Source: an uncultured archaeon
Lineage (GTDB): Archaea > Asgardarchaeota > Lokiarchaeia > Sigyniarchaeales > SOKP01
Assembly: GCA_964632315.1 (NCBI GenBank)
Contig: CAZWEM010000004.1
Location: 1 to 64,000 of the forward strand
DNA: 64,000 nt
Direction of reading: 5' to 3'
A program made the translations under genes and the position numbers. A model generated the notes under the pieces. That model was not told the DNA's origin, made no database searches, and saw only the letters and a list, made by a program, of their open reading frames with translations. This document shows, piece after piece, positions 10,342 through 22,574 of this stretch; within the stretch, counting starts at the first letter, position 1; the number at the start of each line of letters is the position of its first letter.

Positions 10342-11292
10342 TCAATACTTTTTAGAAAGATTTGATAATTGATTATTTAAATTCGATGCCATTTCATCCC
10401 ATTTAGATAATATGGTTTTTACATGAGAAGTAATTAAATCTTTTTCTTTATACTCTAAGTATTTCGTGAATTCTTTGATACTTTCAATCTTGATAAAAGT
10501 TTCAGCCACAAATTTTCTAATCTCTTGAGTTTGATTTTGGAGCACTTCCTGTGTTCTATTTGTCTCACCCCTACGGATAAGGGTTCTTAAATATTCTTCT
10601 GTACCGATAAAAAGAGAATTTAATTCGTTAATCCTTTCTTGAATATATTCCTCATAAGTTTCAAGCAAGTTATCACTAGGAAAAAAATTAGTGATATCTA
10701 TTACTAATTTCTGGGTTTGAGCGATCATTTGTTCCAATGATTCAAAGCCATCTATTTTATAATCTGCTTCATGATATGATGCAACTGTTCCTTTTGAGGG
10801 GTCATCTAATCTAAAAATTTTAAATCCTGGATCATTGGTTAATTGTTTAACTGGATCTCCCTTTCTTTCGGGCTTCTCTATTTGACGAACCAAACGTTCT
10901 GGATTGAAAACCAAGGAAATAGCTAATGGATTATTTTGCTGATAAGAAAGTGTCGTACGTATATCTATCTGGCTCATCATAACTTTAAAATCTGGGTGGG
11001 AATGCCACCACCCAACAATAAATTCATTTTTTTCATATGCTTTCAGTTCAATTTCTTCAGAAGCGGCATAATCTTCTTCCGACCAAAACACTTTATCTAT
11101 AACGTCTTCCTTTCTTTTTACTTGGTGAGTAATCGGAATTGCTGATGATATAATAACATCATCCCCAGAATTTTTACCAATGAAAATCCCATATACTTCT
11201 AACCAATCATCTTTTGGAACTTTTTTATTAGCAAACCTAACACTTGCGGCAACTATTGTATGATAGACTTCCTTTGGAATAACAACAGTCAT
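10342..11292 (-). CDS. MPN+/JAMM metalloprotease (Rpn11-like) with helical C-terminal tail
   Basis: EVYGIFIG; GWWHSHP-x5-SQID intact JAMM motif; start re-assigned to MTVVI by comparison with the paralogs. Confidence 0.85.
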   Translation of the reverse strand: MTVVIPKEVYHTIVAASVRFANKKVPKDDWLEVYGIFIGKNSGDDVIISSAIPITHQVKRKEDVIDKVFWSEEDYAASEEIELKAYEKNEFIVGWWHSHPDFKVMMSQIDIRTTLSYQQNNPLAISLVFNPERLVRQIEKPERKGDPVKQLTNDPGFKIFRLDDPSKGTVASYHEADYKIDGFESLEQMIAQTQKLVIDITNFFPSDNLLETYEEYIQERINELNSLFIGTEEYLRTLIRRGETNRTQEVLQNQTQEIRKFVAETFIKIESIKEFTKYLEYKEKDLITSHVKTILSKWDEMASNLNNQLSNLSKKY

Positions 11293-11451
11293 AATTGAAT
11301 CTAAATGTAATATATTTCTTGATCTGCTTATATTAGTGCTAATATTTATGTCTATTTTTTCTAGAGCACATTTAAATTCAAAATTTAACATAATTATAAT
11401 ATTAAAGTCATGGGAATAATCCCTATATAATATTTTTAGAAATGAATAATT

Positions 11452-12099
11452 ATGTCAGAGAAAGGGTTTGAGCCATTATCCTCTCAGTTAGGAATCGCAG
11501 GTACGTCTTATCGAATCCAATTAGGATTGATTAATGATAAATGGGCATCTAGATTGTTAAAAGGTAACACTGTCATTGATTCATATATCTATAAAGATGA
11601 GGATGTCGAAAGTGGGTTTCCTAACCAGAATCTCATTGTTGGTTGGGTGATCCGAACAGTAGCAATCCCTAACATAAACCCTCATCAAATAATGAAAACT
11701 ACACAAGCTTTGGTCAAGCAGGCAATAGAAAAGAAAGAACAGAAGAAAGTCATGGCACCCATCTCCGAGACACGAGCAATAGAGCTAGAAAAAGTTCCAG
11801 ATAGCGAATTAAAAAGACCAAAAGCTACAGGATGGGTCAAAGAAGAGGGAATGAAATCTGTTCAAGAGATTGAAGATGAGAAAAGAAAAGCATTTCAAGA
11901 AAGATTAACGGCCAAAAAGGAAGAAGAACGGATAAAAATGCAGAACTCAACGAGTACTACAACAGTACATACTACTAGACAATTACATTCCATTCCGAAA
12001 GGAGATTCTAAAGAACAATCATCTAAATTTTGTCCCAATTGCGGAAAAGATTTAGATTTTAAATTCTGTCCCTATTGTGGCAAACCCTTACCACATTAG
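11452..12099 (+). CDS. Hypothetical protein with C-terminal double zinc ribbon
   Basis: FCPNCG...FCPYCG at the C-terminus. Confidence 0.75.
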   Translation: MSEKGFEPLSSQLGIAGTSYRIQLGLINDKWASRLLKGNTVIDSYIYKDEDVESGFPNQNLIVGWVIRTVAIPNINPHQIMKTTQALVKQAIEKKEQKKVMAPISETRAIELEKVPDSELKRPKATGWVKEEGMKSVQEIEDEKRKAFQERLTAKKEEERIKMQNSTSTTTVHTTRQLHSIPKGDSKEQSSKFCPNCGKDLDFKFCPYCGKPLPH

Positions 12100-12168: not shown

Positions 12169-12594
12169 TTATTTCTTACATTCACTACATTCATAATATA
12201 TGTCAATTCTTTGCCCTTTGGGTTCAGTTTTCAATTGAGATATGACTTGTTTCCATATATCATCGAGATTTTCTGGTTTAAAGTCACGAATTTGCTGGCA
12301 ATTAATGCAAATCATATTAATATGGGCCTCAGTGTTTGGGTCATATCTACTACTCCATTCAACAAATCCAAGTTCTTGAATTAATCCTAATTCTCTTAAT
12401 ATGTGCAATGTTTTATAAATTGTACCCAAGCTTATACTTGGATGGTCCTTTTTTATTTCTTGGTGAATTGTATCTGCCGTGGGATGATCTTTTCGAGAAA
12501 AAATAAATTTGCATATTGCTAAACGTTGAGTAGTTACTTTATATCCCTTATTCTTGAATATTGTTATTAATTCTTGAGTGTCCAGATCCTTCAT
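12169..12594 (-). CDS. Fur/PerR family transcriptional repressor
   Basis: T.QRLAI, HPTAD.I, SLGTIYKTL, H.NMICINC and C..C motifs; divergent from katG. Confidence 0.9.
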   Translation of the reverse strand: MKDLDTQELITIFKNKGYKVTTQRLAICKFIFSRKDHPTADTIHQEIKKDHPSISLGTIYKTLHILRELGLIQELGFVEWSSRYDPNTEAHINMICINCQQIRDFKPENLDDIWKQVISQLKTEPKGQRIDIYYECSECKK

Positions 12595-12645
12595 TTTATT
12601 ATAATTCTAAATATTAAAATACTTTTAAAATAAAATATAAGATAT

Positions 12646-12695
12646 TAATAATGATTATTGATTGATAATGATTATTACATAAGAATGATTCTTAT
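12646..12695. promoter_or_regulatory. Three tandem Fur/Per-type palindromic boxes
   Basis: AATAAT-G-ATTATT, GATAAT-G-ATTATT and ATAAGAAT-G-ATTCTTAT centred at 12653, 12670 and 12687. Confidence 0.7.
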
Positions 12696-12769
12696 ATAAT
12701 AAAATATATCCTATTTTTATAAATACTATACTCACTTGTATAGGAAATGAAAAATAGAAATATGTTTAA

Positions 12770-15040
<2,271 letters not shown>

Positions 15041-15172
15041 TCCTACTCAAACTTTATTTTAATATCATTTTTTTTTAATTTTTATCATGATTTATATCGC
15101 ACTACATTAGGTTTGATCCTTTTATTATTCATAAGACATAATTTATTAGATTAATTTAGTAATGATTTAATT

Positions 15173-16918
15173 ATGGATGATCAAAACCTAAATGAACCAA
15201 TCCTAGCAGGACATGGAATTGTTAGGTTCCTAAAATCGCACGGTGTCACTCATATATTTGGAATACCAGATGGGCATACTTTGGCTTTTTACGATGGAAT
15301 TAGAGCTACAGATGGAATCAAGCATGTCTTATTTAATGATGAGAGATCTGCTGCATTTGCCGCGGATGCATTCGCGCGAGTGACAGGAAATTTATGCGTG
15401 TGTGATGCAGGTGCTGCAGGGGCTATGAATTTTCCTGTTGCATTAACAGAAGCTAAAGGATCAGCATCACCAGTATTAGCCATAATAGGTGTTGTAAAAT
15501 CTACAGATGTTCTAAAAAATATTCCTCATGATATTAACGTTTCACGAGTACTAGAAGCAGTTACTAAATGGACAGGAACGGTACTCAACCCAGAATATTT
15601 ACCCCGATTTTTAAAATACGCTGTTAAACAATCGATTAATGGAAGACCTGGACCTACAGCATTAGTTATTGCTGAAGATATAATGAATTCTAAAGAAATT
15701 AAATTAAAAGAATTTATTGAAAGAATAAATAGAAGTTGTTCCATAAATAGTTGTCGAGTTGCACCAATACCAAGCGAAATTGATCAAGCAGTCTCCCTAA
15801 TTGAGAATTCAAAGCAACCTGCAATTTATAGTGGTTCTGGTGCTTTAATATCAGGGGCATATGAGGAGATTCGAGCGCTAAGTAACTTACTGCAAGCACC
15901 AGTTTTTTCCACAATTTCAGGAAAAGGTATAATGACTTCTGGATATTCTAACAACAACCTCTATTTTGGTACTGTAGGATTGTTTGGTGAAAAACCTAAT
16001 CATAAGTTCATTAGAACAAAATCAGATCTATTAATTGTCATTGGAAATCGATTAACCGAAGATGATACTGCTAATTTTAAAGTTCCTACAAGTAGGATGG
16101 ATATAATTCAAATTGACATCGACCCCGCTGAAATCGGATTGTCATATAATCCATGGGGTATTGTTGGAGATCCAAAAGAAACCTTGAAAAAATTGATTGA
16201 CCAATTACAGGCAAATAAACCCTTTAGTTTAGAAAGCAATGGAGAGATAATGAAAAATCGCAAGAAAAATATAGAAATTCTCATAAGAGACCATAAAAAT
16301 TATAGAGAATCTGATAATAATACTTGGATGAATTCAGATCCAATAAAGCCACAAAGAATTCTAAAAAGCATAGCAGAAAACATGGATTCTGGCGACTATT
16401 TAGTTACAGATGCGAGTACAAGTTCAAGATGGATTGGTCCATATTTTCCCGTAAAGGAGCTTGGTCGTCACATAATTACTCCACGTGGAGTTGGACCTAC
16501 TGGATTTGGAGTTGGTGCATTAATCGGTACCATAATTGGATCAAAATACTGTCATCCAAATAAAAAATCAAAAGTAATTTTATTTACTGGAGATGGCGGA
16601 TTGATGAATGGTGGTTTAAGTGAATTTGAAACAATCAGGAAATTAGATTTAGACTGCTTGATTGTTGTAATAAACAATAATTCCCTCGGATTCGTGAAAT
16701 TTGGTCAAGCGATGTTACTTAAACATAGATATTTTGAGACTGATCGCCCAGTAACTAATTTTGCTAAAATATGTGAGGTTTTTGGAGGTACAGGCTACCA
16801 TATTGACAAATTAAGTCAATTAGATTCAACTATTAAAGATGCGACTAAAGGTGAGGGTTTTAGATTGGTCGATATACAGATCGATCCAATGGAAATTCTT
16901 CCACCCAATTTCTATTAA
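15173..16918 (+). CDS. Thiamine-diphosphate-dependent enzyme, acetolactate synthase-like
   Basis: GVTHIFGIP, DERSAAFAADAFAR, GDGG...INNN ThDP motif. Confidence 0.85.
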   Translation: MDDQNLNEPILAGHGIVRFLKSHGVTHIFGIPDGHTLAFYDGIRATDGIKHVLFNDERSAAFAADAFARVTGNLCVCDAGAAGAMNFPVALTEAKGSASPVLAIIGVVKSTDVLKNIPHDINVSRVLEAVTKWTGTVLNPEYLPRFLKYAVKQSINGRPGPTALVIAEDIMNSKEIKLKEFIERINRSCSINSCRVAPIPSEIDQAVSLIENSKQPAIYSGSGALISGAYEEIRALSNLLQAPVFSTISGKGIMTSGYSNNNLYFGTVGLFGEKPNHKFIRTKSDLLIVIGNRLTEDDTANFKVPTSRMDIIQIDIDPAEIGLSYNPWGIVGDPKETLKKLIDQLQANKPFSLESNGEIMKNRKKNIEILIRDHKNYRESDNNTWMNSDPIKPQRILKSIAENMDSGDYLVTDASTSSRWIGPYFPVKELGRHIITPRGVGPTGFGVGALIGTIIGSKYCHPNKKSKVILFTGDGGLMNGGLSEFETIRKLDLDCLIVVINNNSLGFVKFGQAMLLKHRYFETDRPVTNFAKICEVFGGTGYHIDKLSQLDSTIKDATKGEGFRLVDIQIDPMEILPPNFY

Positions 16919-17028: not shown

Positions 17029-18516
17029 ATGCCAAAAAATGAAGACATTCCAGTAGTCATCGAACCGACCGCTTATTATAAAATGCTTTTACATGTTCTC
17101 CGATTTGGTTCAAACGTAAAGGATCCTAACCAATGTAAGGAAGTAATGGGTGGATTAATAGGACATATTAAAAAGAAAGAAGGAAATGAAGTATTGATAA
17201 TCGAGGATGCTATTCCTGTTTCACATGGAGGGGCAATCGAAGTAAGATATTCTCCTGAGCAACTAGGCGATTTTGCTGAGATTGATAGTCGCGTTTTCGA
17301 GGAACACGGAGAAGAAGGATGGTTTAGTTGTGGTTGGTATCACTCTCACCCTGGATTATCTCCTTTTTTCTCAGGAACCGACATCATGAATCAATTATTT
17401 TGGCAAGCTAAAAATCCTGCAGGAGTGGGACTAGTTTTTGATCATAAATATCTAGATAAACCAGGAGATCTTGGTTTTAAAGCATTCAGATTGGATGATC
17501 CTTCAAAAAGTAGAAATACTGGTTATCATGAAGTGCCTGTAACCGTAGAACCTCCAGATGATATATCATACTATCATAATATTATTGAACTAATTGATGG
17601 AGTATATACAAAGCAAATTCCAATCATGGAACTTAATGAAACAACTAACTTCTTCGAAGATGTCTTTATTCCAGAAAAAGATTCTTTAATGATAAAAAAA
17701 CCAGAATTAGATCTTAATCATTTGATAAACTCATTAAAAACTGGAATGGGGAATTTCTTAGAACTGTCATTAACTCCGCTTTTTATTTTGCTAAATTCTT
17801 GGAGTCAAGAAATACTGAAAAAAACTTTTTTTAATAATACCCAAATGCGTCAAGATTTAGAAGACTTGAAATTGAATTTATCAAGTGGTATGATTGATAT
17901 TCAAAAAACCTTTAACTATTCCTTACACGATGAATTAGAAAAACTTGATATTTTTATTGATGACAAACTAGATATCTTGGAAGAGAAACAAGAAAATTTA
18001 ACTGAGTTCATGAAAGAGTTTAAAGAAAAATTAATAACTTTGACTCAAAATACTCTTGAAGAATTTAAAACTCCAATATTCACAGAAATTTTAAAGCAAA
18101 TCGAGAATTCGACTGCCAATCTTGATAGTATTAATAGAAAGAATGTAGAAATATTTAAAGACCTTGAAAAAAACACCATTGCATTACAAGAAGCGTCCAA
18201 AATATTAGAACCTTCTAAGATTCGAATAATTGGAAGTTTGGAGGAACGTTGTGAAAAAATATCTGAAAATACTAAAAAGAAACTAAAAAATACTGAAAAG
18301 AATTTTGATAATCTTGAAAAAGAATCTAAAAAACTCCTTGACGATTTAAAAGCCGCAATTTTGGTTTTGGAAGGTTCAAAAGAGCCAATACTAAATAAAA
18401 TCGAACGATTAGAAGATGATAAAAAGAATTTATTAGAAAAAATCAAAGAATTAAAACTAACAAATGACAAATTATTAGAAAAGGTTAAAACAATAGAAGG
18501 AGGAGGAGAAAAATGA
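17029..18516 (+). CDS. MPN+/JAMM isopeptidase-like protein with long C-terminal coiled coil
   Basis: KMLLHV, EVMGGLIG, GWYHSHPGLSPFFSGTD; heptad-rich C-terminal half; GGTGA RBS 6 nt before ATG. Confidence 0.88.
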   Translation: MPKNEDIPVVIEPTAYYKMLLHVLRFGSNVKDPNQCKEVMGGLIGHIKKKEGNEVLIIEDAIPVSHGGAIEVRYSPEQLGDFAEIDSRVFEEHGEEGWFSCGWYHSHPGLSPFFSGTDIMNQLFWQAKNPAGVGLVFDHKYLDKPGDLGFKAFRLDDPSKSRNTGYHEVPVTVEPPDDISYYHNIIELIDGVYTKQIPIMELNETTNFFEDVFIPEKDSLMIKKPELDLNHLINSLKTGMGNFLELSLTPLFILLNSWSQEILKKTFFNNTQMRQDLEDLKLNLSSGMIDIQKTFNYSLHDELEKLDIFIDDKLDILEEKQENLTEFMKEFKEKLITLTQNTLEEFKTPIFTEILKQIENSTANLDSINRKNVEIFKDLEKNTIALQEASKILEPSKIRIIGSLEERCEKISENTKKKLKNTEKNFDNLEKESKKLLDDLKAAILVLEGSKEPILNKIERLEDDKKNLLEKIKELKLTNDKLLEKVKTIEGGGEK

Positions 18517-19853
18517 TGGATAAAGTTGAAATCCAACCTCAAGCATTTAAAAAAATCATTTTTCACAGTTTACGATTTGCAAATAGTAATCTGGAGGAAA
18601 AACAAGAGGTATTAGGAATTTGTATAGGTAATGTCTCTGAAATTGAAAATATTATTTCTGTGATAGACACAATTCCAGTTATTCATGGGGATCAGATTGA
18701 GATCGGACTTTCTAAAGAACTTCATGAACTATTTGAGCAAATCAAAAAAGATCTTAATTCTGAAGAAGACAAAATTATTGGATGGTATCTCTCACATCCG
18801 GGTTATGATCTTGAATTAACTGATTCTGATAAAACAATCCAATTATATTTTCAAAATGAAACTAATCCCAATGCTATTGCGATGGTATTTGATCCATTAA
18901 AATTTCAGAAATCTGATAATTTTGGATTGAAATGTATTAGATTGAAGGATTACAACCAGCCTAAAACATCTATAGAGCTTGAAACCTTTATCAAAATTCC
19001 GAATACATTAGATTTTTTCAAATGGGTTAAAAGCTTGATAGAAGATTCTCAAAGAAAGATACCTCAAATCATTAATGAATACAAAGAAGTTAAAAAACCT
19101 GATCTTGAAGAATTACAAGAAATACCTAAACCCGAAGAATTAAAAAAGGAAATCTCAGAATTCGATAAAAATGTTGAAGCATTGTCGAATGGAATGGAAC
19201 AAGGATTAGATGCTTTTTCTGAAGATTTTTTAAAGATATACAAGGATCAGATCGAAAATTGGACTAACGATATAAAAAATGGATCCTTGAAAGGAACAGA
19301 ATACATACGCAGTTCGTTAAACCAATTGAATAGGACGATTAATAAAGGATTGGAGGGTTTACGAGGGTATTTTAAAGCAAAATTCAATGAAATTTCGAAA
19401 GTTTTTGTAAAAGGAATTACTGAGTCTTTAGAGAGCAGAATTAATTCCCAGAAAAAAATTGAAACGGATATAATGGTAATTACCGAGGAAATATCAAATT
19501 TCATCGAAAAAGCAATAAGTAAAAGCTTTAATGATATCAATTCAGAGTTGAATTTAGATATTTCTAAATTAGAAAATCAGTTAATTACTAATGAGAAACA
19601 GATCAAAAGAATAGAAGAGTTAATACAAAATAACTCAACTAAAGTATCACAACTTCGTTCTTTGATTGACAATTTTTCTGAAGACATGATCGAAAAAGGA
19701 GATAAATCCTGCGATCCTTTTGAGCAGAACTTGGTTAAACTCATTCAAGATCAAAATATAAATTTTACATCTATTAATGAAAAATACAAAGAAATCGAAC
19801 AATTAACCGAAAGATTGCAGAAATTAATTTCTGAAATAAGACAGATTAAATAA
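18513..19853 (+). CDS. MPN- (catalytically degenerate) JAB domain protein with long coiled coil
   Basis: EVLGICIG; GWYLSHPGYDLELTDSD (first Zn-ligand His replaced by Leu); ATGA overlap with the previous gene. Confidence 0.85.
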   Translation: MMDKVEIQPQAFKKIIFHSLRFANSNLEEKQEVLGICIGNVSEIENIISVIDTIPVIHGDQIEIGLSKELHELFEQIKKDLNSEEDKIIGWYLSHPGYDLELTDSDKTIQLYFQNETNPNAIAMVFDPLKFQKSDNFGLKCIRLKDYNQPKTSIELETFIKIPNTLDFFKWVKSLIEDSQRKIPQIINEYKEVKKPDLEELQEIPKPEELKKEISEFDKNVEALSNGMEQGLDAFSEDFLKIYKDQIENWTNDIKNGSLKGTEYIRSSLNQLNRTINKGLEGLRGYFKAKFNEISKVFVKGITESLESRINSQKKIETDIMVITEEISNFIEKAISKSFNDINSELNLDISKLENQLITNEKQIKRIEELIQNNSTKVSQLRSLIDNFSEDMIEKGDKSCDPFEQNLVKLIQDQNINFTSINEKYKEIEQLTERLQKLISEIRQIK

Positions 19854-20282: not shown

Positions 20283-22574
20283 ATGAAAACTAAACATACC
20301 AAATCGAAATTTAAGAAATCTTTAAATCAAGCATTTAAGAAAATAATTTATAAGGAAATTATAGTTGATGGTCAAGAACCACCGAAATCTTATGCATATG
20401 AAAAAAAGTTTTATGGGATCTATTCAATATTTCTCTTCTATTCTTTTTTAATGTTATTTGCAATAAATTATCCCAATAATTTAGGAGTAAGTATTTTAAC
20501 TCTAGGTAATCCCTTTGCTTTTGGAAATGCTATTATTGGTTTATTTCTTTCACTTTCTTTTCTTTATAGTAGCGACAAATTTCGAACCTTTATTTTTGAA
20601 AAGTATTCTGTCATTAAGCAGATCTTTCTTTATGCAGGAATAGTTTTAAGTTTATACTTTTTTTTCGTAGGGGTTTATGATTCAGGTTTGAATCTCATGA
20701 GTTATTTATTAGCATTATCAATGTTTTGGTTAGTATTATTAAGTACGAGATTTTACATGTATTCTCGAAAATTTGCCACGAAAATTGAATCACGGGCGAT
20801 TGTTAAATATTCCTTAATTCGGAATTTTGGAGCATTTATAACTCCTTATTTTATTTTAGCTGTATTGATAACTTTAGCTCTCTTTTACAGAAGCTTGTTA
20901 GTCTTTTTATCACTCGATTTCTTCGGACCGTTCGCTCCAAATGAAGCCGTACAAGTATATCAAATTGAAATGCGACTAGTAATGCCCCTCATATACTTTA
21001 GTTTAATTTTAACTCTTATTTTCATTCTTTTTGAATTTGTGTTCACTCGTAGAAAGGCTGAAACAAGAAGGGCAGGTCTTTATGATAATTATACATTCTC
21101 ACTTATTGTACTATTTATTTTCTTTTTTCAAATACTCCAAGTGAGTATCTATTTAATATTACATCCAGACACAATAAATGCTTTAAAAGCGACCGTTGGA
21201 GCAACTAGTGCCACAATTACCTACATATTTGTGTTTGAATTTGTAATTTCAATGTTTTTCTTATATAGAATAGTTAAAAAACTAGGGCGAAGCTTGGGAT
21301 GGCGATTATTCATATTTAAGAAGGATGGATTGATCTTATTAATTCTTGGATTTGTTTTCGCTCAAACATTATCTCGATTTGCTCTTCAAACACAAGTGCC
21401 TAATCAAGAAATCACGGTCTTGGGCCAGTTTCTTATGGCTGATAAATATATTGTTTCTATAATCATGATTATATTTTTGGGGATAACACTTCTAATATAT
21501 TACTTAAAACCACACGAAACTTCAATGTTTATTAGATTACAAAAGGAAACCGTTTCAGAAGAAGAAAAGGATCTAGATATAGTATACAAATTAATCAGGA
21601 GTGAATACATAAGAAGAGGAGAAGCATACCCTGTTGAAATACTTGAAAGAGAGCTTATTAAAGCCACACATCTCTCAAAGCAAAAGGTTAATTCTCTAAT
21701 TGGAAATCTCGCTTACCGAGACATTGACATTAAGATATTTAACAAAAAAGATGATACGGGGCACGTAAGGAAATATGTAGATTTTGTTTCTGTAACCGAA
21801 AAATTTGATAGAAAAGGGGTTGCTAAAAAGAAAGCAAAAAAGTACTTAAGTGAAAGGTTAGTGGATACCATGCGTAAGAGGGGTAAAACACTTAAACTAA
21901 GTACTTCAACTAATAATGAGAAGGCTTCCGATCAATTTCTAAACTCCTTATCTACGAACTATTCTAAAAAGGTACAAGAAGAGGCAGGACAGAAAGGAAC
22001 TACAATATTTTTTAAAATGAATCAAATTCCAGCAACTTTGCAAGAAAGTATATTGGATCTTCTAAAAAAGGAGTTTATATATCGAATTGAAAATGAAGAC
22101 AAATATCCTGATATCCATTTTCCTATATCTGAAATTGCATCTCAAATACAATTAGAAACGAGAATTAATCCTGGTGAATTATACCCTATTTTAGAGAATT
22201 TAAGTAGACACGATATTGAGTTTGAACTTATTGCAAATCCGGATGAACCAGAAGATAAGTTAATAAGTTTCTTTCCGATTGCTGATGAAGATATGTTATA
22301 TAGTTTGATGAGCTTTAGAAATGAAGAATTCTTAAAGATTAGAACTCGAATAATAAAACAATTTTTTAAATTTTTTAATCGAAAAAGAGTAATGGCTACT
22401 TTTGGTAAATTAAAAAACAAAATACCTAATAACTCTGAGGAACAGAAAGCTTGGAGGGAGCTGTTGACACGATTGAATGACAATTTTAAAGATTTCTCAT
22501 TAATTCAAGAAAAACTTATTAGTGGAGCCAATATAAAAACTGTTTTAAGAAAATTTCCTGTTAAAAACATTTAA
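20283..22574 (+). CDS. Polytopic membrane protein with large soluble C-terminal region
   Basis: About 10-11 hydrophobic segments in aa 45-405; charged C-terminal ~350 aa. Confidence 0.75.
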   Translation: MKTKHTKSKFKKSLNQAFKKIIYKEIIVDGQEPPKSYAYEKKFYGIYSIFLFYSFLMLFAINYPNNLGVSILTLGNPFAFGNAIIGLFLSLSFLYSSDKFRTFIFEKYSVIKQIFLYAGIVLSLYFFFVGVYDSGLNLMSYLLALSMFWLVLLSTRFYMYSRKFATKIESRAIVKYSLIRNFGAFITPYFILAVLITLALFYRSLLVFLSLDFFGPFAPNEAVQVYQIEMRLVMPLIYFSLILTLIFILFEFVFTRRKAETRRAGLYDNYTFSLIVLFIFFFQILQVSIYLILHPDTINALKATVGATSATITYIFVFEFVISMFFLYRIVKKLGRSLGWRLFIFKKDGLILLILGFVFAQTLSRFALQTQVPNQEITVLGQFLMADKYIVSIIMIIFLGITLLIYYLKPHETSMFIRLQKETVSEEEKDLDIVYKLIRSEYIRRGEAYPVEILERELIKATHLSKQKVNSLIGNLAYRDIDIKIFNKKDDTGHVRKYVDFVSVTEKFDRKGVAKKKAKKYLSERLVDTMRKRGKTLKLSTSTNNEKASDQFLNSLSTNYSKKVQEEAGQKGTTIFFKMNQIPATLQESILDLLKKEFIYRIENEDKYPDIHFPISEIASQIQLETRINPGELYPILENLSRHDIEFELIANPDEPEDKLISFFPIADEDMLYSLMSFRNEEFLKIRTRIIKQFFKFFNRKRVMATFGKLKNKIPNNSEEQKAWRELLTRLNDNFKDFSLIQEKLISGANIKTVLRKFPVKNI

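Follow-up and report, generated by a model that had tools for sequence, protein, structure and literature searches.

A conserved tandem pair of long-tailed MPN proteins, one with a recurrently degenerate active site, in a Loki-type class of Asgard archaea

The window analysed here is a stretch of 64,000 nucleotides (nt; positions 1 to 64,000 of contig CAZWEM010000004.1, assembly GCA_964632315.1; G+C about 30%) from an uncultured archaeon of the Asgard class Lokiarchaeia. It contains two adjacent genes, which we call A and B, that encode paralogous MPN-domain proteins with long helical tails. The active site is complete in A and degenerate in B. We consider it probable, with considerable room for doubt, that these tandem duplicates encode a catalytic protein (A) and its non-catalytic partner (B), which form a stalked heterodimer of a design reached independently of eukaryotes. 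The two genes comprise the following features:

17029..18516, plus strand: gene A, a long-tailed MPN+ (JAMM) protein of 495 amino acids (aa), called from its open reading frame, JAB match and complete motif
17029..17607, plus strand: MPN domain of A, residues 1-193 (AlphaFold2 model, Foldseek)
17341..17382, plus strand: zinc-binding and catalytic motif of A, H105-S-H107-x7-S115-x2-D118; the catalytic Glu, E38, is at 17140-17142
17608..17715, plus strand: linker of A, conserved and modelled with low confidence, with the motif ELNETT..F.DVFIPE..KKPE
17716..18501, plus strand: single long helix of A, residues 230-491, hydrophobic period 3.62
18346..18399, plus strand: invariant tail motif of A, LKAAILVLEGSK.P...K (L440-K457), the first part of which falls within a 25-residue stretch absent from B
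18499..18516, plus strand: A/B junction, with the Shine-Dalgarno run GGAGGAGGAG and the ATGA stop/start overlap (18513-18516)
18513..19853, plus strand: gene B, a long-tailed MPN paralogue of 446 aa with a degenerate active site, called from its open reading frame, JAB match and ratio of nonsynonymous to synonymous substitution rates (dN/dS)
18513..19052, plus strand: MPN domain of B, residues 1-180 (AlphaFold2 model, Foldseek)
18789..18830, plus strand: motif of B, L93-S-H95-x7-T103-x2-D106, with Leu at the site of the first zinc-ligand His and Thr at that of the Ser; the Glu, E32, is kept
19161..19847, plus strand: long helix of B, residues 217-445, hydrophobic period 3.63

The TGA stop codon of A (18514-18516) shares bases with the ATG of B (18513-18515) in the sequence ATGA, and the Shine-Dalgarno run lies at 18499-18508, within the last codons of A and 5-14 nt 5' of the B start. 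A and B are probably co-transcribed and translationally coupled. Both proteins match the Pfam family JAB (PF01398), with 40.3 bits for A and 46.4 bits for B against a cut-off of 22.5. They match each other by BLASTP with 27% identity over 293 aa (E 4e-24) and, in a profile-profile alignment, over 436 columns that include the tails (E 2e-60). This end-to-end homology indicates that a whole gene, not merely a domain, was duplicated. The sole larger gap between the two profiles spans 25 residues and holds the start of the most conserved tail motif of A, LKAAILVLEGSK.P, the counterpart of which is missing from B. An earlier note, made from the letters of this DNA alone, had described adjacent paralogues overlapping by ATGA, the first with a complete JAMM motif and the second short of one zinc ligand; all three observations are borne out, with E38, H105-S-H107, S115 and D118 (HSH-x7-S-x2-D) in A and E32, L93-S-H95, T103 and D106 (LSH-x7-T-x2-D) in B, where L93 takes the place of a His.

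The pair is widespread among the relatives of the window's archaeon. We fetched 79 species loci around B, and B is usable in 77 of them. A lies directly upstream of B on the same strand in 72 of these 77 loci, and in 72 of the 73 that are not cut by a contig end; the pair is therefore syntenic in relatives, a point on which the earlier note had made its interpretation depend. The A-B junctions range from -32 to +15 nt, apart from a single one at 57. Of the five loci without an adjacent A-B pair, four are cut by contig ends. In the fifth (locus L075; genome G400, contig C10, 47586-56316), an insertion of about 6 kb, which includes a gene for a hexapeptide-repeat transferase, separates A and B on the same contig; both genes are intact and on the same strand.

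Of the 134 genomes of the window's family (f1), 133 have a full-length B-type match, and every other family sampled from the order and class has such matches too (f2 and f4-f7 in full; f3 in 11 of 14 genomes). Other families of the phylum gave matches to the MPN domain only (E about 1e-13; residues 5-190), and in five genomes of these families A is matched over residues 5-190 only, in much shorter proteins. The records that hold the locus are DNA contigs only, mostly from salt-marsh and marsh metagenomes. Full-text literature searches found no published description of the A-B pair; the system is real and conserved, and apparently unpublished.

The motif EHSHSD is invariant in A, being present in 74 of 74 species loci and in 120 of 120 database relatives. 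Among the 77 species with a usable B, the same positions read EHSHSD in 16, QHSHSD in 16, EISRTT in 10 and EHSRSD in 8, with some 16 further states. The motif has been lost in about 20 different ways: it is intact in 16 of 77 copies (21%), and the other 61 are missing a ligand or catalytic residue. The QHSHSD copies lack only the catalytic Glu and keep all zinc ligands, and the other 44 aligned copies comprise about 18 motif states, with replacements nearly all at a zinc ligand; in the clade of the window's B, the motif is E[LIV]SHTD. HSH is kept in only 33 of the 77 B orthologues, in line with the earlier note's expectation that it would not usually be retained. The note's picture of an active and an inactive gene holds for A and for the majority of B copies, but it does not extend to the whole B family, which is not uniformly MPN-.

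In a tree rooted with A, B forms one clade (support 100) in which the intact copies are paraphyletic and scattered, one early branch included; at least 5 changes between intact and degenerate and at least 24 changes of motif state are needed. This distribution indicates that the ancestral B was active and that catalysis was lost repeatedly. The state E-[IL]-S-R-T-T occurs in two separate B clades (L027-L051 and L054-L076), one of them nested among intact-motif copies; this recurrence could reflect convergence, gene conversion, transfer between lineages or an error in the tree.

Loss of the motif has not been accompanied by decay of the gene. The median dN/dS of close species pairs by the NG86 method is 0.14 for A, 0.20 for B (64 pairs, dead-site B clades included) and 0.10 for a third MPN gene of the locus, C, which is described below. 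The frame is open in all B-type matches listed but one (a single TAA, in genome G157). B is therefore under purifying selection and is not a decaying gene. With Leu in place of the first His, the window's B cannot bind the catalytic zinc normally. Judged from its sequence, this copy qualifies as an MPN- pseudoenzyme, given its MPN fold, its missing zinc ligand and its maintenance by selection, and the B family is a patchwork in which the site of an active ancestor was lost time and again. The anatomy of the genes, their paralogy and synteny, the states of the motif, the selection on the genes and their restriction to one lineage are all established, which places the anatomy and evolution of A-B on secure ground.

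AlphaFold2 models built with family alignments give both proteins the same layout. A (mean predicted local distance difference test score, pLDDT, 71) consists of an MPN head (residues 1-193), a linker and a helix of 262 aa (residues 230-491), and B (mean pLDDT 73) of a head (1-180), a linker (181-216) and a helix of about 229 aa (217-413 and 419-445). The linkers between head and helix are 35-45 residues long and modelled with low confidence (pLDDT below 50 at residues 196-239 of A), and their motifs are conserved; the A linker has invariant E201, N203, E204, F209, P215 and P225. Foldseek's top match for A in the Protein Data Bank (PDB) is the BRCC36 subunit in a BRCA1-A complex structure (6gvw_B), with 297 aligned columns that cover head and helix, followed by CSN5, Rpn11 and the Rpn11 homologue of Caldiarchaeum (CsRpn11); the match probability is 1.00 for BRCC36, CSN5 and Rpn11. 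For B the top match is Rpn11 (4o8x_B), with a template modelling (TM) score, normalised to the target, of 0.73. Sequence and profile searches of the PDB agree with Foldseek on the likeness of the heads to eukaryotic JAMM proteins: Rpn11 and CSN5 match the A and B heads with HMMER E values of 1e-12 to 1e-7, and CsRpn11 is the best PDB sequence match for A (E 6e-8), B (1.5e-7) and the A profile (2.6e-12). The B profile is nearer to Rpn11 (1e-11) than to Rpn8 (1e-5). B also retains, in common with A, the invariant H18, R21 and F22 of helix alpha-1, as well as P55, H58 and G59 at the start of Ins-1.

The earlier note had both proteins continue into 250-300 aa of heptad-rich helix. The long helices are confirmed, but the heptads are not, and the B tail, at 230 aa, is shorter than supposed. 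The median best hydrophobic period is 3.62 residues in the A tails (n=74 orthologues) and 3.63 in the B tails (n=77), rather than 3.5; the power at the best period is about ten times that at 3.50 and exceeds that of 500 shuffles of the family-averaged profiles. As this period is near that of an undistorted alpha-helix, the hydrophobic residues form a nearly straight stripe. The hydrophobic face is about 160 degrees wide and 43-61% hydrophobic, with acidic residues centred opposite. Such periodicities do not fit a classical supercoiled heptad pair; the tails could be straight rods of two or four helices, or amphipathic helices that bind a surface. The common period means that the A and B tails could align in register. 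The length of the B tail is nearly fixed across the family (229-231 aa), and that of the A tail is 242-297 aa.

The tail is restricted to A/B-type proteins, with 44 clusters at E <= 1e-10 when the tail profile is compared with 1.84 billion representatives. In the full-length proteins among them (435-613 aa) the tail starts at residues 180-250, and the other matches are fragments. No other head domain bearing this tail was found among the 1.84 billion representatives, the weaker matches being long coiled-coil proteins with multiple stretches. The tail profiles also match apolipoproteins A-IV and A-I (E 2e-7 to 3e-6) as well as apolipophorin III, and the Pfam family Apolipoprotein gives a weak tail match; the profile matches may be partly compositional. 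Matches of the tails to Fib_alpha, FlgN, ZorA, SMC, Atg17, designed bundles and the heptad repeat (HR) regions of spike proteins in Pfam, NCBIfam and the PDB were set aside as generic helical or compositional ones.

Eukaryotic JAMM deubiquitinases of the proteasome lid, the COP9 signalosome, BRISC and the BRCA1-A complex work with a catalytically dead MPN twin. To our knowledge, it is not understood why such a design of enzyme and dead twin arises. For the archaeal pair we propose that a whole gene for a long-tailed MPN+ (JAMM) isopeptidase was duplicated in tandem within the Loki-type class of Asgard archaea. A would be the subunit that carries out catalysis, a zinc isopeptidase like Rpn11, CSN5 and BRCC36, and the ubiquitin-type modifiers of the archaeon itself, in conjugates or as precursors, would be its putative substrates. 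The genome contains ubiquitin-family matches above the Pfam cut-off and an E2 gene beside one of its JAB genes, which makes a ubiquitin-type modifier the natural candidate substrate for A. B, most likely its non-catalytic partner, would pair with A side by side, head against head and tail against tail, in a stalked heterodimer about 35 nm long, each helical tail measuring roughly 35 nm. The resulting design would be that of the eukaryotic MPN+/MPN- pairs, above all BRCC36-Abraxas, reached independently. Zinc-dependent activity, a ubiquitin-type substrate, heterodimerisation and the role of the tails are what we infer here.

The case for a heterodimer comes from tight operon coupling, end-to-end colinearity, the pseudoenzyme signature of B and one weak structure prediction. 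The predicted A-B complex has an interface score (ipSAE, computed from predicted aligned errors) of 0.59 (0.60, 0.56 and 0.59 in individual runs), which is weak support, against 0.02 for the best of three controls; the runs have at least 61% of contacts in common, and the partner pLDDT is at least 70. Among 80 solved complexes, 58 reach the mark set for this score, as do 2 of 110 mismatched pairs; those that reach it with a score of 0.60 or under are only 7 of the solved complexes and the two passing mismatches; as the complex was predicted with custom alignments, these benchmark counts apply only roughly. Of the earlier note's suggestion of a prokaryotic active/inactive MPN heterodimer, the operonic pair of long-tailed paralogues therefore stands, while physical pairing is predicted only weakly. 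The distances of the A and B tails correlate across species at 0.85 (0.82 as a partial correlation on C; none of 999 permutations as high), which would suggest co-evolution. This mirror-tree signal was discarded as support for pairing after subsampling to equal numbers of columns.

Several observations weigh against a heterodimer. At 85 columns each, the tail-tail correlation is 0.61 +/- 0.07, compared with 0.54-0.63 for other pairs of parts and 0.55-0.69 for split halves of one tail, so there is no co-evolution signal, and the raw correlation reflects only shared history. The lengths of the A and B tails do not covary (Spearman -0.27). A period of 3.63 and a broad hydrophobic face are unlike a classical two-stranded heptad coiled coil. 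The complex score lies in a range where a passing prediction is wrong more often than not, save where the pairing was already likely on other grounds, and, since MPN+/MPN- complexes have been solved, the pass may reflect resemblance to those structures. Near relatives of true partners pass as well, and an A-A or B-B homodimer would be compatible with the prediction. Finally, 21% of species have a B with the whole motif, and there B may serve as a further enzyme instead of a scaffold.

A and B might instead be independent stalked MPN proteins, monomers or homo-oligomers, with operon linkage reflecting shared regulation only. A would then be an isopeptidase, and B a second isopeptidase where its site is intact and elsewhere a receptor or decoy for ubiquitin or ubiquitin-like (Ubl) proteins. 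The full motif in 16 of 77 B copies and the complete zinc ligands in a further 16 fit this account, as do P55, H58, G59, H18, R21 and F22 of B, which suggest retained ligand binding; moreover, the Caldiarchaeum Rpn11 homologue is a homodimer in the crystal and active alone (PMC6043591), and the complex prediction cannot separate hetero- from homodimers. We nevertheless regard such independence as rather unlikely, because stop and start lie tightly together in 71 of the 72 adjacent pairs, as would suit production in equimolar amounts, A and B align along their full length and are inherited as a unit, repeated loss of catalysis under purifying selection is the signature of a non-catalytic partner, and the heterodimer score, weak as its support is, lies far above the controls. 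A different role for the tails would make A-B a membrane-tethered deubiquitinase module, its heads paired or not, with tails that are not coiled coils for dimerisation but apolipoprotein-like amphipathic helices on membrane or lipid or else straight multi-helix bundles. The hydrophobic period of 3.62-3.63 in all orthologues, not 3.5 and near the value of about 3.67 for the 11/22-residue amphipathic repeats of exchangeable apolipoproteins, the wide hydrophobic face with acidic residues opposite, and the apolipoprotein and apolipophorin matches all point this way, as does a conserved gene for a multi-pass membrane protein of 763 aa downstream of the pair in 64 of 79 loci. Helical matches rich in Lys, Glu and Leu are, however, prone to compositional bias; the tails lack the Pro punctuation of 22-mers seen in apolipoproteins and are modelled as one unbroken helix; their hydrophobic face is just 43-61% hydrophobic; and conservation of the neighbourhood may simply be the genome colinearity of close relatives. 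This role seems to us less probable again than independence, and we hold the same doubt about its specific form, in which straight amphipathic helices of the apolipoprotein or hendecad kind (3.63) lay the MPN heads on a membrane or lipid surface. If it were true, A-B, possibly with C and a neighbouring zinc-ribbon protein, would be a membrane-associated deubiquitinating module in an archaeon with ubiquitin and ESCRT-type machinery, with a role like that of AMSH-type enzymes at eukaryotic endosomes and built from unrelated parts.

The Asgard host, and MPN heads whose nearest matches by sequence and by fold are Rpn11, CSN5 and BRCC36, might suggest instead that A-B is the direct archaeal ancestor, that is, the orthologue, of a eukaryotic pair (Rpn11-Rpn8, CSN5-CSN6 or BRCC36-Abraxas). 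We consider such descent very improbable. Full-length matches of the B type are confined to the family, order and class of the window's archaeon, and the tail is found nowhere outside the A/B family among the 1.84 billion representatives. In an MPN-domain tree built without eukaryotic sequences, A (support 99), B (98) and C (99) form separate clades; B is sister to A with support of 91, which is not decisive, and both sit with C and two other long paralogues of the genome in a Loki-specific expansion. A JAB protein of 277 aa encoded beside the E2 groups apart from A and B, with the ubiquitin-operon JABs of other Asgard classes. In addition, ancestral B was evidently MPN+, and the class-restricted distribution, together with a B profile nearer to Rpn11 than to Rpn8, argues for a lineage-specific duplication that is an analogue, not the ancestor, of the eukaryotic pair. 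The MPN phylogeny that the earlier note had called for thus places B beside A in a class-restricted expansion. With this placement and distribution A-B would be a convergent analogue of Rpn11-Rpn8 or BRCC36-Abraxas.

As a heterodimer, A-B would most resemble BRCC36-Abraxas and BRCC36-KIAA0157 (ABRO1), which likewise combine an MPN+ enzyme with an MPN- paralogue-like partner, both built of a head and, after it, a helical region; in structure A is most like BRCC36, with head and helix aligned. Helix alpha-1 is where the two heads of BRCC36-KIAA0157 fuse, and their helices pack into a heterodimeric bundle (PMC4579573). The two systems are not orthologous, however, as A and B are each other's closest relatives within one archaeal class. 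The helices of BRCC36-Abraxas are two short ones, whereas each tail of A and B is a single helix of 230-260 residues with a period of 3.63. Unlike in BRCC36-Abraxas, the partner B has a full active site in 21% of species, and the A-B heterodimer is predicted only, and weakly. Rpn11-Rpn8 and CSN5-CSN6 are also active/inactive pairs of MPN paralogues, and the A and B heads match them with TM scores (target) of up to 0.73; these pairs sit in PCI complexes with their C-terminal helices in a multi-subunit bundle, and A-B would be of independent origin. No PCI-type or BRCC45/MERIT40-type gene turned up among the neighbours of A-B, though no search aimed at counterparts of BRCC45, MERIT40 and SHMT2 was made. 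Matches of the genome to PF01399 (PCI) cover the winged-helix part only, and the same search is positive in 4 of 14 control genomes and was set aside as uninformative.

An organisation of the Rpn8-Rpn11 type has been stated as not known in archaea (PMC6043591). CsRpn11 of Caldiarchaeum subterraneum (PDB 6fju/6fjv; PMC6043591) resembles A in being an archaeal, eukaryote-like JAMM protein, and it processes ubiquitin. It differs in being a small stand-alone enzyme (about 200 aa) encoded beside ubiquitin, E1, E2 and E3. The CsRpn11-like gene of the window's genome is the gene for the 277-aa protein on another contig; to this plan A and B add a tail of 230-260 residues and a dead twin. If the A-B pair is the heterodimer that we propose, the design of an enzyme with a dead partner would have arisen separately in the archaeal group nearest eukaryotes. 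Living species show B at every stage, from intact (16 of 77) through loss of the Glu only (16 of 77) to various losses of zinc ligands (nearly all the rest), and the series offers a natural test of what a dead partner contributes and of why its active site becomes dispensable.

A and B belong to a wider conserved cluster, in which the following features of the window lie around the pair:

10342..11391, minus strand: gene C, a third MPN+ paralogue of 349 aa with an intact HSH..S..D motif, the divergently oriented member of the conserved cluster
11452..12099, plus strand: a 215-aa protein with a C-terminal zinc ribbon, in 70 of 79 loci (median 68% identity)
12169..16918, no single strand: an inserted block of fur, katG and a gene for a thiamine pyrophosphate (TPP) enzyme, which splits C and the zinc-ribbon gene from A-B in the window's genome
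19864-20145, minus strand: a 93-aa protein encoded immediately downstream of B, in 75 of 79 loci (69% identity), with no Pfam match
20283-22574, plus strand: the 763-aa multi-pass membrane protein encoded downstream of B, with no Pfam match

Gene C is present in 57 of the 72 loci with adjacent A and B, in divergent orientation about 1 kb upstream of A. It is homologous to A in the MPN head only and has its own C-terminal helical domain of about 150 residues. C is better conserved than A or B, with a median identity of 62% and the lowest dN/dS of the three, and its motif is essentially intact in 59 of 60 copies. The 215-aa protein consists of an unassigned N-terminal domain of about 100 residues, a Lys/Glu-rich middle and the zinc ribbon; in relatives its gene always lies between C and A, and its ESM Atlas cluster is Archaea-only, with Promethearchaeota as the commonest phylum. 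The 763-aa protein has many hydrophobic segments and a long soluble C-terminal half.

According to Pfam, the inserted block encodes Fur (141 aa, minus strand), the catalase-peroxidase KatG (738 aa) and a TPP-dependent enzyme of 581 aa. Its G+C fraction is 0.39-0.40, compared with about 0.30 around it. Genes fur and katG occur in none of the 79 related loci and the TPP enzyme in 3, and at this site in relatives the zinc-ribbon gene and A lie only about 0.1-0.2 kb apart. From its composition and distribution, the block looks like a recently acquired oxidative-stress island that is no part of the A-B system.

The window's genome (G000) has seven MPN/JAB genes: A, B, C and four others on other contigs, which are listed here.

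Contig C8, 1420-2937 of locus L002: a 505-aa MPN+ protein with a TPR/SNAP-like C-terminal half
Contig C15, 763-2007 of locus L007: a 414-aa MPN+ protein with a helical tail
Contig C26, 988-2442 of locus L005: a 484-aa protein with an N-terminal zinc ribbon and a central JAB domain
Contig C29, 1288-2121 of locus L001: the 277-aa JAB protein, encoded beside a UQ_con E2 and a RING-like protein

With such a complement, stalked, multi-paralogue proteins of the deubiquitinase type would be an addition to the ubiquitin toolkit of the Asgard archaea.

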